A DNA stretch of 56,992 bases from Dehalococcoidia bacterium (GTDB taxonomy: Bacteria; Chloroflexota; Dehalococcoidia; Dehalococcoidales; JAUXAP01): NCBI GenBank assembly GCA_030619865.1, contig JAUXAP010000004.1, positions 1 to 56,992 on the forward strand, in the 5' to 3' direction. How positions within the stretch are numbered: the stretch's first letter is position 1; every line of letters begins with the position of its first letter. Under the pieces are notes generated by a model that saw only the letters and a list, made by a program, of their open reading frames with translations, was not told where the DNA came from and did not search any database. Shown in pieces: positions 5,420 to 16,667 of this stretch. The translations under genes were made by a program, and so were the position numbers.

Positions 5420-5465
5420 TATAGCGTTGCTGGCTAACTCTGTCTCTGTTATACTTTATTCGCGT

Positions 5466-5541
5466 GCCCCCATCGTCTAGAGGCCTAGGACACCGGCCTT
5501 TCAAGCCGGCAACACCGATTCGAATTCGGTTGGGGGCACCA
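5466..5541 (+). tRNA. tRNA-Glu(TTC)
   Basis: Cloverleaf; anticodon arm ccggc-ctTTCaa-gccgg; TTCGAAT T-loop; encoded CCA. Confidence 0.97.
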
Positions 5542-5556
5542 ATGATTTACTCTAAC

Positions 5557-6030
5557 TTAAAATTTGCCCTTTAGCTTCTTATACGTTTCAGCCAGGGCTT
5601 CATTAATTACCTTAGTATCAGAGAGCACCGGCATAAAATTAGTATCACCCTCCCATCGGGGCACAATGTGAGTATGAATATGCTTATCAATACCGGCTCC
5701 GGCTATTCTCCCCACATTCATTCCTATGTTAAAACCATCGGGGTTAAACACCTGCCTTAAAACCTTGACGCTTCGGCTAACTATTTCAATATGCTCGTGG
5801 AGCTCCTCATCAGTTAGCTCTTCCAGATTAGCTATGTGTCGGTAGGGGGCTATCATCAGGTGACCCGAGTTGTAGGGATAGCTATTCATAATGACGAAGT
5901 TTTTGTCTCCCCGATACAGGATATAGTTTGTAGCATCACTATTCTGCCCGGGTTTTTCACATAAAATACAGCCTTCCGGTTTCTCCATCTGGATATATTC
6001 TATACGCCATGGCGCCCAAATCTGCTTCAT
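5557..6030 (-). CDS. HIT family hydrolase (Ap4A hydrolase/phosphorylase type)
   Basis: WAPWR N-terminus, CILC, HIHTHIVPRW triad; AAGGAG before ATG 6030. Confidence 0.92.
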   Translation of the reverse strand: MKQIWAPWRIEYIQMEKPEGCILCEKPGQNSDATNYILYRGDKNFVIMNSYPYNSGHLMIAPYRHIANLEELTDEELHEHIEIVSRSVKVLRQVFNPDGFNIGMNVGRIAGAGIDKHIHTHIVPRWEGDTNFMPVLSDTKVINEALAETYKKLKGKF

Positions 6031-6161
6031 ATCATTCTCCTTACTGAGTAAGTTACTTATCACTATTTTAGACGGCTCCTTTCAGGAGGTCAAAGGGGGT
6101 AAAGCAATTTAGCTTGTTGTAAAATAGTTAACAATATGTCAATTGGTTGGTCAATAGGGAG

Positions 6162-6190
6162 TTGACAATAACTTGAGCAATCCGTAAAAT
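6162..6190 (+). promoter_or_regulatory. Sigma70-type promoter of the transposase remnant
   Basis: TTGACA-17-TAAAAT, then GGGAGG RBS and GTG at 6215. Confidence 0.7.
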
Positions 6191-6214
6191 TTACGTGACG
6201 GCTGGGAGGATAGC

Positions 6215-6451
6215 GTGAGCAGTGTGATAAAGAGAAGAAGGGACAAGCAGTTTGCCTCAACGTTGCTTGACCGTAGTCCGTCTGTGGAGAGGGTTTTTTG
6301 CAGAATGAAAAATCATAGGCGCCTCAACAATATTACTGTTAGGCGTCGTCGTAGGGTTACAGTTCATAGTCTGATTCCAGTGATTGTGACGCAGGCTATG
6401 GCCTTGGCATATCCTGATGCACCGAGAAACTGCATTCAACAAAATAGTTGA
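6215..6451 (+). pseudogene. Internally deleted DDE transposase (C-terminal catalytic-Glu helix retained)
   Basis: SVERVFCRMK matches the ExxFxxxK helix of IS4/IS5/IS1182-like transposases; only 78 aa, just inside the left TIR. Confidence 0.7.
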
Positions 6452-6489
6452 CAAAATGACAATAATAGTATATAAGTAAAGTAACAGAA

Positions 6490-6561
6490 TAAGAAGAAAA
6501 CCGCTTTCCAGAGCGGTTTCCGGTTTGCCATCTATAAGGTGTGTTATATTATGCGCTTACT
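6490..6561 (-). ncRNA. Predicted ~70-nt antisense RNA to the TA operon leader
   Basis: Minus-strand TTGACA(6596-6591)-17-TACTAT(6573-6568) promoter and downstream hairpin aaaccgct/agcggttt (6498-6519) followed by a U-rich tail on the minus strand. Confidence 0.5.
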
Positions 6562-6631
6562 AATAATATAGTACACCCTGGGTGGCGTTTTGTCAAGTCC
6601 CCCGCCTACCCGTGGGTGGGGAGGCGTACAG

Positions 6632-7153
6632 ATGGCCGACATAGACTTTATGTTTAATCGAGCAAAAGCTATTGAGGTGATACTATATCTAGCTAGTAAG
6701 GTGTCAAATTCTGATATCTATGGTATTTGCAAATTACTCTATTTGGTAGATAAGACTAACCTTGAAAAGTACGGACGATTTATTTTTGGCGAATCATACG
6801 TTGCTATGCAGGAGGGTGCTACGCCATCAAATGCCTATGATTTATTAAAGGAGGCAAGTGAATCATCCGTAACTGGCTTAAGCGTTGATACGAATCAAGT
6901 CGTCGCCTTACGTGAGGCGAACTTAGATTATTTAAGTGAATCTGACGTAGAGTGTTTAGACCAGATTATCAGCATATATGGTAAAGCACCTAATTGGGTT
7001 AGAAGAAGAGATACCCATGATGATGCTTGGAAGAAAGCTTGGGCGAGTAGAGGAAATATGGGAAGTGTCAGAATCCCAGTTGAGAGTATCGCAAAACTTC
7101 TTTCTGACTCAGATGATATTATTAGTCACCTGTCTAACTCAGATGACGGATAG
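6632..7153 (+). CDS. Panacea-domain (DUF4065/SocA-like) antitoxin
   Basis: KAIEVILYL, KLLYLVDK..LEKYGRFIFGESYVAMQEGATPS..YD, THDDAW; GGAGG before ATG 6632. Confidence 0.85.
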   Translation: MADIDFMFNRAKAIEVILYLASKVSNSDIYGICKLLYLVDKTNLEKYGRFIFGESYVAMQEGATPSNAYDLLKEASESSVTGLSVDTNQVVALREANLDYLSESDVECLDQIISIYGKAPNWVRRRDTHDDAWKKAWASRGNMGSVRIPVESIAKLLSDSDDIISHLSNSDDG

Positions 7154-7158
7154 ATATC

Positions 7159-7527
7159 ATGCCGGATGTATGGCATTTTTTCCATGTCAAGAATTGTCCT
7201 CATACGAATCCCCCCAAAGATAAATTTACTGTTATTGTTTGTAAAGACTCAGAGTGCATGGGTTTCTTCGTAAATTCACATATCAATAAGTTTATCCAAA
7301 AAAGACCCAGTATGCTAGCATGTCAGGTCGCAGTAAAAGCATCAGATTATTGGTTCTTGTCCAGTGACTCATATCTAGATTGTAGCCAACTATACCCTTT
7401 TGACGATATTCTATTGGTAGATGGGCGTGGCTCCGTTACCGAACAAACAAAAGCTCAAATTAAACAAGTAGTACTTAATGCCAAGACAATTGAGAAACGC
7501 TACCAGAAGTTAATTTCTGAAGGGTAA
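7159..7527 (+). CDS. Putative toxin partner of Panacea antitoxin (possibly PemK/MazF-like fold)
   Basis: 122 aa, 5 bp after the antitoxin stop, inside the same element; PPKDKFTVIV, FFVNS, FL..DSYLDC pattern. Confidence 0.55.
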   Translation: MPDVWHFFHVKNCPHTNPPKDKFTVIVCKDSECMGFFVNSHINKFIQKRPSMLACQVAVKASDYWFLSSDSYLDCSQLYPFDDILLVDGRGSVTEQTKAQIKQVVLNAKTIEKRYQKLISEG

Positions 7528-7673
7528 GCTAACTTGAGCAACTTTATTGGTTATCGGGTGCATTTCGCAACAAGCTAAATTGTAAAAAAACAGCTATCCT
7601 CTATAGTTACATTAGCTATGAAATTTGACCTGTTACAATTGAACAGTAGCAATGAGCAGCCTAGAGAAACAAA

Positions 7674-9515
7674 TTGACCCATCTCAATGACATACTGCAT
7701 AAGGTTACCAAGCCCGCTCGCTATACCGGTGGCGAGTGGAATAGCGTTGTCAAAGATTGGGACAAAACCCCTATCAAGATAGCCCTTGCCTACCCTGATT
7801 TATATGAAATAGGCATGTCTAACATGGCTTTGCCTATCCTCTACGACCTACTTAATAGCCAGCCGGATGTTCTGGCCGAAAGGGTCTACGCCCCGTGGGT
7901 AGATATGGAAGCAGTAACGCGCTCAGAAGGTATCCCCCTGTTTAGCCTTGAATCCAAGCACCCACTAAAGGATTTTGATATTATCGGTTTCTCCCTAGGC
8001 TATGAACTCACCTATACCAATGTATTGAATATGCTTGACCTAGCTCAAATACCAGTCCTAGCCTCAGAGAGGAATGATTCCCACCCAGTAGTAATAGCCG
8101 GCGGTAGCTGCGCACTCAACCCTGAGCCTATGGCCGACTTTATTGACTTTTTCGCAATTGGGGACGGAGAAGAAGTGCTGCTTGAGTTACTTGATAGCTT
8201 CCGAGATTGGAAAAGACAGGGCAAGGAAGCCTCCAAAAAACAACTATTGCACCAAGTGGCTACTATCCCTGGCATCTATGTACCTAGCCTATATCAAGTG
8301 GAATACCAAGCCAACGGTTTATTTAAAAGCATTGCCCCCACTGTGACTCAAGCTCAACCTAGCATTCAACGGCGACTGGTGACCAAGCTGCCTCCTCCGG
8401 TCACTAAACCAGTAGTTCCTTACATTGAGGTAATTCACGACCGTGGGGCAATAGAGATTCAGCGGGGTTGTGGCCGTGGCTGCCGTTTCTGCCAGGCAGG
8501 GACTATATATCGCCCGGTGCGCGAGCGCCCTCAGCCGGAAGTGCTTCAAGCAGTAGCAGAGCTTATTAATAACTGCGGTTACAATGAGATATCTTTAGTT
8601 TCATTAAGCACCAGTGACTACCCTGAAATTGACAAGCTGGTAGCTAGCTTATTCCACCGTTATCAAAACTATAATCTTGTCCTATCACTGCCCAGCCTCC
8701 GCATTGATAGCTCCTCAGTAAAATTGGTGGACTCTCTTCCCTCCCACAGGAAGACAGGGCTCACCTTCGCTCCGGAAGCAGGAAGCGAGAGACTACGACG
8801 AATCATAAATAAGAACACCCATGAAGATGAAATCCTAGAAACGACTGCCACCGCGTTTGATAGGGGTTGGACAAGCCTCAAGCTATATTTCATGCTCGGC
8901 TTGCCCACAGAAACCATTGACGATATAGGGGACATCGTTCAACTAGTAAACAAGATTCGCTCATTGGGCAGAAAAGCTAAAGGGCGAAGACCCCAGCTAA
9001 GAATCAGCCTATCCACCTTTGTCCCTAAACCGCATACGCCCTTTCAGTGGGTAGCCCAAGAAAGTGAACAAGGGTTAAGCTCTAAACATGAACTCCTTAA
9101 GCAGGGGTTGCGCCAAAAAGGGATAAGGCTATCCTGGCAAGACCCTAAGGTCAGCCTGCTTGAGGCAGCATTATCACGAGGAGATAGGCGGTTAGGTAAG
9201 GTTATCTATCGGGCCTGGGAGCTGGGCTGCACCTTTGATGCCTGGAATGAACACTTTAACTACGAAAACTGGTCTCGCGCTTTTGAAGAGGCCGGTCTTG
9301 AACCCGGCTTCTATGCCCAACGGGAACGCTCCCTAGACGAACTCCTCCCCTGGGCTCATATTGATGTGGGGGTAACTTCTGCTTTCCTGCAGCGAGAATA
9401 TCAGCGTGCTTTAGAGGGTAAAGAAACCCTTGACTGCCGTCATCAAGCTTGTAATGTCTGCGGACTGGAACACTGGCAACCAGATTGTCAACAAAAGCAT
9501 CGGAGACTCAGCTAA
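7674..9515 (+). CDS. B12-binding radical SAM protein (TIGR03960-like)
   Basis: [40 protein letters not shown]. Confidence 0.9.
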
Positions 9516-14009: not shown

Positions 14010-15200
14010 CTACATCCTTACTAGTCTACTCATAATAGTATATCCTGACTCAATAAAAAAGCCAGTATTTTTTGCCTCAGCCTCAGTGAATCTCCTCGCT
14101 CCGTTAGGGGTAAACCCCGCTCCCCACAGCATAAATGGGACGGGGTCATCAGTATGAGTCTGAATCTTGATCGGCGTTGAATGGTCGGGCATAATTAATA
14201 CCTGAAGGTCACCTGGTTGCCAACGGCGAAGCTGGTTAACGATTTCTCTATCCACTCTCTGGATAACCTCTACTTTATCATCAATTAAGCCAGCATGAGC
14301 CGCCTCATCCGTCGCTTCAACATGGATGACTACCAAATCATATTCTTTTAGTGCCACCAAGGCTCCGGCTGCCTGGGCGGTAAAATCATTGTCCATACCA
14401 TCTTTCACCCCCGGTATATCTAGCACCTCCATCTCTATAATTCGGGCCAAGCCCCGGATAATATCCACCGCCGATGTCACTGCCCCACTAAGACCATAAA
14501 TCTTTTTGAAAGCAGGTATATCAGACAACTGGCCACTGCCCCAGAAGAGCCATATCATTGTGGCTGGTATCTCACCTCGAGACCTCCGATCTACATTCAC
14601 CGGATGATTTTGGAGCACCGCTTCTGAGCGTTTCATCAGGTCTCGCAAGAGGTCGCTCCCCGGACCTTTGGGCAGAAAATCTTTTATCGATTTATTCGGG
14701 ATATCATGCGGGGGAGTACAAGTAGCCAAAAGGGTATCCTCTCGTCCTTTTATCTTGCAGATGTGCCGATAGCTGACGCCGGGGTAAAAGTGCACCGTAT
14801 CGCTACCCAGCTCCTCCTCTAGAGCAGCCACAAGCTGATGAGCCTCCTCAGTACTAATTTGACCCGAGTTAAAGCTCCACATTTTGCCGTCACGAACAGC
14901 GGTTAAATTGCAGCGGAAAACAGCGTCGCCAGCATCAATATTAATGCCCATGCCCCTGGCTTCAATAGCTGCCCGCGCTGGATAACGGACCGTTGGGTCA
15001 TAACCAAGTACTGATATACAGGCGCAGGAACTGCTAGGTTCCAACCCAGGTGGTATGGTGCGGATAAGTCCCAGAGTACTTTCCTGTGCCATAGCATCCA
15101 GATTTGGAGTTTGAGCCAGCTCCAGGCAGGTCTTGCTCCCACGCTCAGGTAGTGGCCAGCCAGAGGCACCATCAATTATCAAAACGCAATGTTTCATCAA
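14010..15200 (-). CDS. apgM: Cofactor-independent phosphoglycerate mutase (archaeal/ApgM type)
   Basis: IIDG, LELAQTPNLD, PGVSYRH, TPPHD, HVEATDEAAH, PDHSTP..HT. Confidence 0.85.
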   Translation of the reverse strand: MMKHCVLIIDGASGWPLPERGSKTCLELAQTPNLDAMAQESTLGLIRTIPPGLEPSSSCACISVLGYDPTVRYPARAAIEARGMGINIDAGDAVFRCNLTAVRDGKMWSFNSGQISTEEAHQLVAALEEELGSDTVHFYPGVSYRHICKIKGREDTLLATCTPPHDIPNKSIKDFLPKGPGSDLLRDLMKRSEAVLQNHPVNVDRRSRGEIPATMIWLFWGSGQLSDIPAFKKIYGLSGAVTSAVDIIRGLARIIEMEVLDIPGVKDGMDNDFTAQAAGALVALKEYDLVVIHVEATDEAAHAGLIDDKVEVIQRVDREIVNQLRRWQPGDLQVLIMPDHSTPIKIQTHTDDPVPFMLWGAGFTPNGARRFTEAEAKNTGFFIESGYTIMSRLVRM

Positions 15201-16267: not shown

Positions 16268-16543
16268 TTACTGCCCATAGCCATACCGTATCATAATATC
16301 GTTAACGTTTGTGCTGTTTAGCCATACTTCTGCAAGAGTTCGCCCATATGAGTCAATAGCTACTTGTTCATAGGTGATACGCTTATTTGGAATGAGGCTT
16401 TCCAATATAGTCTTTGCTCGTTGCCCACGTGACGTGCTTATAGGTGGAGCGCTTACTCGAGTAAGGCGTATTCGGACCTCCGTGTTAGTGACAAATGTAT
16501 CACCGTCTATGACAAGAACACAGATTGCACTTTGTTTAACCAT
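16268..16543 (-). CDS. Thermonuclease (SNase) family protein, short and possibly inactive
   Basis: VIDGDT, RIRL, DSYGRTLAEV, NVN..MI..GY; own promoter TTGACA-16-TATAAT (16592-16565) and GGAGGT RBS. Confidence 0.8.
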   Translation of the reverse strand: MVKQSAICVLVIDGDTFVTNTEVRIRLTRVSAPPISTSRGQRAKTILESLIPNKRITYEQVAIDSYGRTLAEVWLNSTNVNDIMIRYGYGQ

Positions 16544-16614: not shown

Positions 16615-16631
16615 GCATTTCGCAACAAGCT
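16615..16631. repeat. Second copy of the element right end
   Basis: gcatttcgcaacaagct is identical to 7560-7576. Confidence 0.75.
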
Positions 16632-16667
16632 GAAATGGGGACCATCGTTAAAAAGGGAAATAGTTAG

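Follow-up and report, generated by a model that had tools for sequence, protein, structure and literature searches.

What controls a toxin–antitoxin (TA) operon whose antitoxin carries no recognisable DNA-binding domain? This question is raised by the gene panA and its partner, which lie in a 56,992-nt stretch of a Dehalococcoidia bacterium genome (assembly GCA_030619865.1, contig JAUXAP010000004.1, positions 1–56,992 of the forward strand; hereafter the window), and by the motif-rich DNA directly in front of them (positions 6448–6631). The panA gene (6632–7153, plus strand) encodes an antitoxin of 173 aa, residues 33–134 of which match the Panacea domain (PF13274) at 54.6 bits against a cut-off of 25.7, bearing out the Panacea TA operon proposed in an earlier reading of the bare sequence (the original prediction). 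The ATG at 6632 is taken as the start codon because the N-terminus aligns with those of 13 homologues. Pfam matched the Panacea domain alone in PanA, with no helix-turn-helix (HTH) or other DNA-binding domain, and a structure model of low confidence (pLDDT 59) gave no fold match at an E-value of 0.001 or better; sequence matches to RTX-type chains in the PDB, with an E-value of about 0.05, were taken as chance. The candidate cognate toxin is the adjacent open reading frame (ORF) of 122 aa, which begins 5 nt past the panA stop codon (7159–7527, plus strand). It has no Pfam or NCBIfam match, and its resemblance in features to a PemK/MazF-family toxin cluster (score 0.94) serves as a lead only; locus L003 has the same two-gene order. 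According to Ernits et al. (PMC10440598), autoregulation is probably not a function of the Panacea domain; this view and the lack of a Pfam DNA-binding domain in PanA both count for the reading proposed next.

The answer that we put forward, tentatively and as one possibility, is that the operon is driven by a promoter overlooked in the original prediction, here called P2, and that head-on exclusion between P2 and an opposing promoter would both throttle and insulate the PanA-toxin cassette (PanAT). The motifs behind this reading are present in the DNA and, as far as the sequence comparisons reach, private to this lineage, and from them we infer a minus-strand transcript and its regulatory effect.

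Promoter-like sites were scored out of 12 against the consensus, in a scan that requires T as the last base of the −10 box. P2 (TTGCCA-16-TATTAT, 6525–6552, plus strand) scored 10/12, as did the opposing minus-strand site (TTGACA-17-TACTAT, 6568–6596), which lies exactly where the original prediction had placed it. The plus-strand site predicted further upstream, P1 (TTGACA-17-TATAAG, 6448–6476, with the −35 box at 6448–6453 and the −10 box at 6471–6476), is likewise present at the left edge of the cargo when the sequence is read directly; it is absent from the scan list because its −10 box ends in G where the scan demands T, and with G in this place P1 is probably weak. Its −35 box overlaps the TGA stop codon (6449–6451) of the transposase-remnant ORF described below. 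With starts placed 6–8 nt past each −10 box, P2 would begin at about 6557–6560 and the minus promoter at about 6561, so that the two putative starts (about 6559 and about 6561) would face each other head-on about 2 nt apart.

For comparison, PanA homologues with 52–71% amino-acid identity were collected from genomes and metagenomes, and 26 unique loci were kept. Loci with identical upstream sequence (L011, L012 and L075, identical to L006; L076, identical to L007; L017 and L079, identical to L009), truncated loci (L020, L026, L027 and L087) and loci at ≤39% identity (L028–L031, L004 and L005) were excluded, and positions in L024, L082, L085 and L086, where the start codon is mis-set, are approximate. 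The family promoter, found in 14/26 loci, has the form TTGAC(A/T)-16-TAnAAT with a TG extension, and its −35 box lies 48–63 nt before the start codon. P2 can also be read as TGT-TATATT, which is like the TG-extended −10 box of this family promoter, and on its motifs P2 is likely the PanAT promoter.

The −10 boxes of both opposed promoters are held in a single palindrome, H2 (6538–6577, both strands; repeat I6), whose 15-nt arms (6538–6552 and 6563–6577) are complementary at 13 of 15 positions around a 10-nt loop; the left arm provides the −10 box of P2. Inverted repeats of this grade (at least 13/15 paired, loop of 3–20) number 35 in the 823-kb genome compared with 7–13 in five first-order Markov simulations, and about 0.002 would be expected in 184 nt. 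It is very unlikely that the palindrome arose by chance. The stem had been noticed before, together with the fact that its only two mismatches are G-U pairs on the plus strand, from which selection at the RNA level had been proposed. The stem and the mismatches are indeed there (6543/6572 and 6544/6571, adjacent, reading G-U and U-G on the plus strand), but selection at the RNA level is not supported, since two adjacent mismatches of the transition type have a chance of about 1 in 4 of reading in this way on a given strand. The stem has a folding energy of −14.2 kcal/mol on the plus strand and −11.5 kcal/mol on the minus strand, and the surrounding region (6477–6640) folds alike on both (minus, −59.0 kcal/mol, z −5.16; plus, −63.9 kcal/mol, z −4.91), so the G-U argument fails. 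The fold signal is that of DNA palindromes and favours neither strand.

Downstream of the minus promoter lies H1 (6496–6521, minus strand), a hairpin like an intrinsic terminator for which the scan gave 10 pairs and the tail TTCTTATTCT. Its energy is −14.2 kcal/mol on the minus strand versus −11.3 kcal/mol on the plus strand, where just three U follow the stem, and the view that it is terminator-like on the minus strand alone, read from 6521 to 6496 into a U-rich tail, is therefore confirmed. Promoter and terminator motifs together predict a minus-strand transcript of ~75 nt (about 6486–6561; fold z −2.4). Of the ~70-nt antisense transcript claimed in the original prediction, a short unit of this kind is reasonable and rare by genome-wide count, while the RNA as such is predicted from motifs alone. 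The genome contains 343 promoter-like sites at ≥10/12 (one per 4.8 kb of strand) and 27 stringent terminators, H1 among them. A same-strand promoter at ≥10/12 lies 30–130 nt upstream of 3/27 of these terminators, against 0.57 expected. The first of the other two units scores 54.2 bits as a PyrR binding-site attenuator (RF00515, gathering score 54; G000:C19:54389-54484, L065 190–285), and the second, which has no Rfam match, forms the leader of a 555-aa gene (G000:C20, about 14518–14665, minus strand). As both are leaders before genes, the criterion picks real transcription units, and the minus unit of the window is plausibly another; it is the sole one of the three without a gene behind it, and the ORF list holds no minus-strand gene to the right for H1 to serve. 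The minus strand also contains a 31-codon ORF (6531–6436) whose product would be a strongly hydrophobic peptide, basic at its N-terminus. A type I TA system was considered and rejected here, as no ribosome site is seen before this ORF and the terminator lies within it; the T-rich tail probably gave rise to the ORF incidentally.

The third structure, the GC hairpin H3 (6597–6626, plus strand), sequesters the Shine-Dalgarno sequence GGAGG (6620–6624) with an energy of −19.6 kcal/mol, confirming the hairpin that had been drawn over the antitoxin's ribosome site. Six of the seven positions 6619–6625 are paired with a probability of about 1, whether the mRNA starts at 6483 or at 6557–6562. Because H3 is closed whichever start site is assumed, the locked ribosome site supports a brake on translation. 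A direct repeat, D9 (CCCTGGGTGG / CCGTGGGTGG, 6576–6585 and 6610–6619), has its copies 34 nt apart; the copy further upstream is similar to H3's 3′ arm minus GGAG, and may be a scar of duplication or else offer an alternative partner for pairing.

In the mechanism that these features suggest, the operon would be transcribed mainly from P2, giving a leader of about 73 nt, and the ribosome-binding site locked in H3 would act as a constitutive brake on PanA translation. The palindrome would be the shared core of the face-to-face promoters, its left arm supplying the −10 box of P2 and its right arm that of the minus promoter. Each polymerase would require the ~60 bp of DNA that the other also needs, and the minus promoter would thus throttle PanAT by promoter competition, a form of transcriptional interference. 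With the starts ~2 nt apart, the predicted minus RNA would not overlap the P2 mRNA (at most about 3 nt), and it reaches neither the ribosome site at 6620–6624 nor the start codon at 6632. Stopping at 6521–6496, the ~75-nt RNA would be complementary only to transcripts from P1, which is probably weak, or from further upstream, such as the promoter-like site at 6162–6190, from which read-through might enter the cassette. Its part would be to help insulate the cassette from read-through and not to act on the ribosome site.

The setting of the cassette can be described with more certainty. The stretch 6448–6631 is securely identified as the promoter plus 5′ leader, private to this lineage, of a PanA-toxin cassette in a remnant of an IS5-family insertion sequence (IS), a context that the original prediction had also overlooked. 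The module at 6105–7582 is, judged by its terminal repeats and transposase remnant, a decayed IS5-family element with PanAT as its cargo. Its left terminal inverted repeat (I1; 6105–6125, plus strand) is complementary at 19/21 positions to the right one (7562–7582, minus strand). The 15-nt core of the left repeat also adjoins transposase relatives in five other genomes (L038, L041, L042, L046 and L048), and a third copy of the core occurs at 16617 in the window. An ORF of 78 aa (6215–6451, plus strand) is the C-terminal remnant of a DDE transposase (PF13751, E 4.5e-4), with 68–77% identity to the tails of ~340-aa transposases in other Dehalococcoidia, and the full-length transposase of L040 matches PF01609 at 78.4 bits together with DUF772, which marks the IS5 type. 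Upstream of the remnant, at the promoter-like site at 6162–6190 (TTGACA-17-TAAAAT, 11/12, plus strand), a block, TTGACAATAACTT, is common to the window and the region upstream of the full-length L040 transposase. The element contains no intact DDE transposase, and with the gene cut to its 78-codon C-terminal tail it cannot move by itself. The target-site flanks, TAAAG and TAAAA, form at most a 4-bp repeat.

Homology to related IS elements is limited to 6281–6436, 6105–6136 and 7551–7583. The cassette (about 6437–7550) thus occupies the space between the truncated transposase gene and the right element end, and the leader region makes up the left 185 nt of the captured DNA. A cargo-free form is represented in one marine metagenome run, whose contigs join 6429 to 7559 with 13 letters between; the metagenome contigs depart from the window after about 7578. 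The genes on either side of the inserted module, one HIT-family and one radical-SAM, are neighbours in G003 and G004 and only ~100 nt apart in G003. A tRNA-Glu gene (5466–5541) adjoins the HIT gene and lies mostly inside a 95-nt match to G003 (5444–5537, 90.5% identical). Like passenger-gene insertion sequences, the element combines 21-bp terminal repeats with a transposase of the DDE (IS5) type, its cargo lodged after the transposase gene and before the right end; unlike them, its transposase is down to 78 codons and the element is not self-mobile.

The IS5-family relatives hold varied cargo in the same place, between the transposase gene and the right terminal repeat: in L041 it is a second Panacea pair, oriented the other way, in L042 HicA and a partner, in L048 a protein with an NYN domain, and in L038 a protein of 245 aa. 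Of the transposase, several copies retain just a short C-terminal tail. The third terminal-repeat copy of the window (16617–16637, minus strand) lies ~70 nt from a 91-aa ORF with an SNase domain (16268–16543, minus strand; PF00565, E 7e-11), and the two may be another small cargo remnant; no partner for this repeat was found within 4 mismatches.

Face-to-face promoters in an insertion sequence have a known precedent in IS10/Tn10, where pIN and pOUT oppose each other, a stem-loop antisense RNA of ~70 nt (RNA-OUT) is made and a fold-back structure blocks the translation of read-through transcripts. The window shares with it the face-to-face promoters in an insertion sequence, an antisense RNA of about that length, here a predicted one, and the fold-back structures. 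It differs in that the region covered by RNA-OUT on the transposase mRNA includes the ribosome site and the start codon, whereas the RNA predicted here misses the ribosome site; in addition, the starts in the window would be ~2 nt apart, the downstream genes are TA cargo and the transposase is a remnant. If real, the control would be of a known type, found in an HTH-less PanA and in a clade without studied regulation; to our knowledge, no regulatory RNA has been studied in Dehalococcoidia. A working pair of head-on promoters plus a locked ribosome site would, if true, be one answer to how an HTH-less PanA is regulated, and would show how a TA cassette is insulated while riding in an insertion sequence. 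A wider form of this idea, which we consider unlikely, is that the HTH-less antitoxin is run without any protein repressor, by head-on promoters, a shielding RNA and a locked ribosome site, as a self-contained module gained when the cassette became IS cargo. If the motifs are inert, the value of the locus is smaller and lies in an IS5-family element of marine-sediment Dehalococcoidia with varied TA and nuclease-like cargo.

A number of observations weigh against a P2-driven operon with head-on exclusion. P2 has no exact −35 box, and the start sites were guessed by Escherichia coli rules, which may not hold for Dehalococcoidia. No RNA run containing the locus was among the nine sequencing runs listed. 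In a scan of 5500–8000, neither the promoter-like sites (9 versus 6.9 ± 1.9 in shuffles) nor the terminator-like sites (3 versus 1.8 ± 1.7) were in excess. The minus promoter with its terminator occurs in 0/26 homologue loci, and so does an H3-type hairpin over the ribosome site. The H2 palindrome was not seen in any of the 26 when their upstream sequences were read by eye, a procedure adopted because a repeat scan with 12-nt arms failed to flag the window's own palindrome. A minus-strand promoter-like site at ≥10/12 is present in 4/26 homologue leaders, which makes the motif alone common, and what 14/26 loci have instead is a strong promoter, TG-extended and some 30 nt upstream of the start codon. 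No copy of the leader exists elsewhere in its own genome, and in 363 genomes of the order the foreign matches covered at most 49 nt of a 201-nt leader query. Partial terminal-repeat fragments nearby suggest a patchwork that is perhaps partly non-functional.

The sole leader DNA shared with a homologue is a 19-nt block at P1, 18/19 identical in L019, where it holds the −35 box of a 12/12 promoter. The structure from −75 to +30 of the start codon is stronger in the window (−36.1 kcal/mol) than in the 26 homologues (−7.3 to −28.6 kcal/mol). A single-sequence covariance model of the minus RNA (R1) retrieved generic terminators only, at ≤24 bits, from 151 genomes and 33 loci, and Rfam (4227 models, run over 5900–7800) produced no match in the region, its sole hit being a snoRNA model with an E-value of 4 outside it. 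In viral contigs, neither a relative of PanA nor an exact copy of the H3 stretch was found. A MAFFT alignment of the homologue leaders, with 44% mean identity, was set aside as not trustworthy.

The same data can be read as those of a relic. The minus promoter, the terminator and perhaps the palindrome would then be inert leftovers of a former neighbourhood or of the capture itself, with PanAT transcribed from P2 or P1, an explanation that, though doubtful, we hold only a little less probable than the P2 reading. It accounts for features that are unique to the window's copy and found in 0/26 homologue loci, and the region does lie at a capture junction with repeat-like fragments: D1 (6441–6463) is alike at 20 of 23 positions to the inner part of the left repeat, D8/I17 (7526–7536) resembles the outer 11 nt of the right repeat, and D6 is an exact 12-mer common to the transposase promoter region (6169–6180) and the sequence just after the toxin stop codon, the fragments on the right lying within 7526–7541. 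These fragments look like signs of repeated rearrangement. In L023, the PanA homologue is preceded by a 12/12 minus promoter that, when the sequence is read by eye, points to a divergent ORF, so divergent promoters do exist beside some homologues. On the other hand, a 15-bp palindrome mirroring the −10 box of the PanAT promoter is not what one expects of a relic, nor is an intact promoter kept 40 nt from one of only 27 stringent terminators. A tRNA 3′ end or attachment-site relic at 6586–6612 was rejected, as the look-alike sites in L051, L052, L055 and L064 have no tRNA. The matching 19–22 nt in the genus g39 adjoin a 120-aa gene of no relation and, counted across 363 genomes, amount to chance.

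The palindrome could also be a DNA operator. It is centred on the inferred start of P2, the classical operator position, and might be bound across the −10 box and start by the toxin, by its complex with PanA or by some host factor in ordinary type II autoregulation; the minus promoter would be a product of palindrome symmetry and a chance −35 box, and H1 an insulating terminator. The strand-symmetric fold signal is what a DNA palindrome would give. Homologous loci, moreover, do use DNA operators. A perfect GAAC-N4-GTTC box is found 88–100 nt before the PanA start in 7/26 loci (L006, L007, L010, L013, L014, L018 and L084); in six of these (L006–L018), reading by eye places it just after a TG-extended −10 box and before the proximal promoter. 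The same box lies ~15 bp upstream of the LexA_DNA_bind match of the genome's own lexA (PF01726, 66.7 bits; G000:C21:35042), so those seven PanAT loci are probably SOS-controlled. The 200 nt upstream of panA in the window contain no such box, even with one mismatch allowed, and by comparison with these loci the window's copy has lost it. The palindrome across the promoter −10 box and start thus resembles type II TA operators, but unlike them it is not common to the 26 loci (it was seen in none) and its antitoxin has no detected DNA-binding domain, neither as an HTH by Pfam nor as a fold match of the pLDDT 59 model; the literature (PMC10440598) also speaks against the Panacea domain as an autoregulator. 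A hairpin-type palindrome of 40 bp is long for an operator, and symmetry does not explain a perfect TTGACA placed 17 nt from the mirrored −10 box. Although doubtful, operator control too seems to us only a little less probable than the P2 reading.

Counter-transcript control, the model of the original prediction, fares less well and is in our estimate improbable. It would have an mRNA starting at P1 (about 6483) pair with the minus RNA over 6488–6561, with refolding or cleavage as the outcome. P1 does stand out as a conserved element through the block shared with L019, the plus-strand leader folds strongly (z −4.9) and the minus unit is statistically unusual. However, the −10 box of P1 ends in G and is rejected by the scan, the short RNA misses 6620–6624, H3 is closed whatever the start, and the G-U argument is void. 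Neither the 26 loci nor the DNA and covariance-model searches yielded a homologue, which, by the test that the original prediction set itself, weakens the counter-transcript idea, although all available homologues are distant. In a variant of the model, a longer antisense RNA would arise within panA, from a minus-strand promoter-like site at 6707–6680 (10/12, in the scan list) in its 5′ end, run across both the start codon and the ribosome site, and stop at the terminator of the shorter RNA. This site reaches 10/12 in the window only, with 0/26 homologues at that score, and the part of it that resembles a −10 box shares bases with panA codons for I-L-Y; it was rejected as not conserved.

Plasmid counter-transcripts of the R1 CopA and pT181/pIP501 types pair with an attenuator or a ribosome site and are conserved within plasmid families. 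The RNA predicted here is like them in being short, terminated and made from the opposite strand of the controlled gene's leader; unlike them, its overlap lies upstream of the ribosome site and concerns only transcripts from P1 or from further upstream. Control of the plasmid type is therefore not upheld, as the predicted RNA stays upstream of both the ribosome site and the start codon and misses the P2 mRNA. The idea had further been thought undescribed, yet antisense tuning of a type II system is on record: aMEF, a cis-encoded antisense RNA, was shown by experiment to stimulate the type II mazEF system in E. coli (PMC8749433). Both cases place an antisense RNA at a type II TA operon, with the differences that the antitoxin families are not the same and that the RNA of the window is predicted from motifs. 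The same report describes the aMEF promoter as poorly conserved yet functional, so that lack of conservation is not proof of noise (PMC8749433). In the portions of published Panacea work that were searched, the term 'antisense' was not found.

The weakest alternative, an invertible promoter, can be regarded as very improbable: the −35 boxes do lie in a 14-nt inverted repeat (I7; 6448–6461 / 6583–6596, 12/14 complementary), and inverting 6462–6582 would swap the −10 boxes with both spacings still 17 nt and would put a good terminator on the plus strand, switching PanAT off, but chance alone, by our estimate, would give about one such repeat over the 1.7 kb searched, and no strand-changing joint was reported, although coverage of the leader in four DNA runs amounts to one 154-nt contig (6399–6552, depth 2.66). 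In run X3, the summed contig depth at 6559–6609 was 72.5, compared with 2.35 in the preceding bin, and in run X2 it was 16.1 compared with 0. In both runs, abundant sequences share the stretch that extends rightwards from the palindrome loop and not the part upstream of it.

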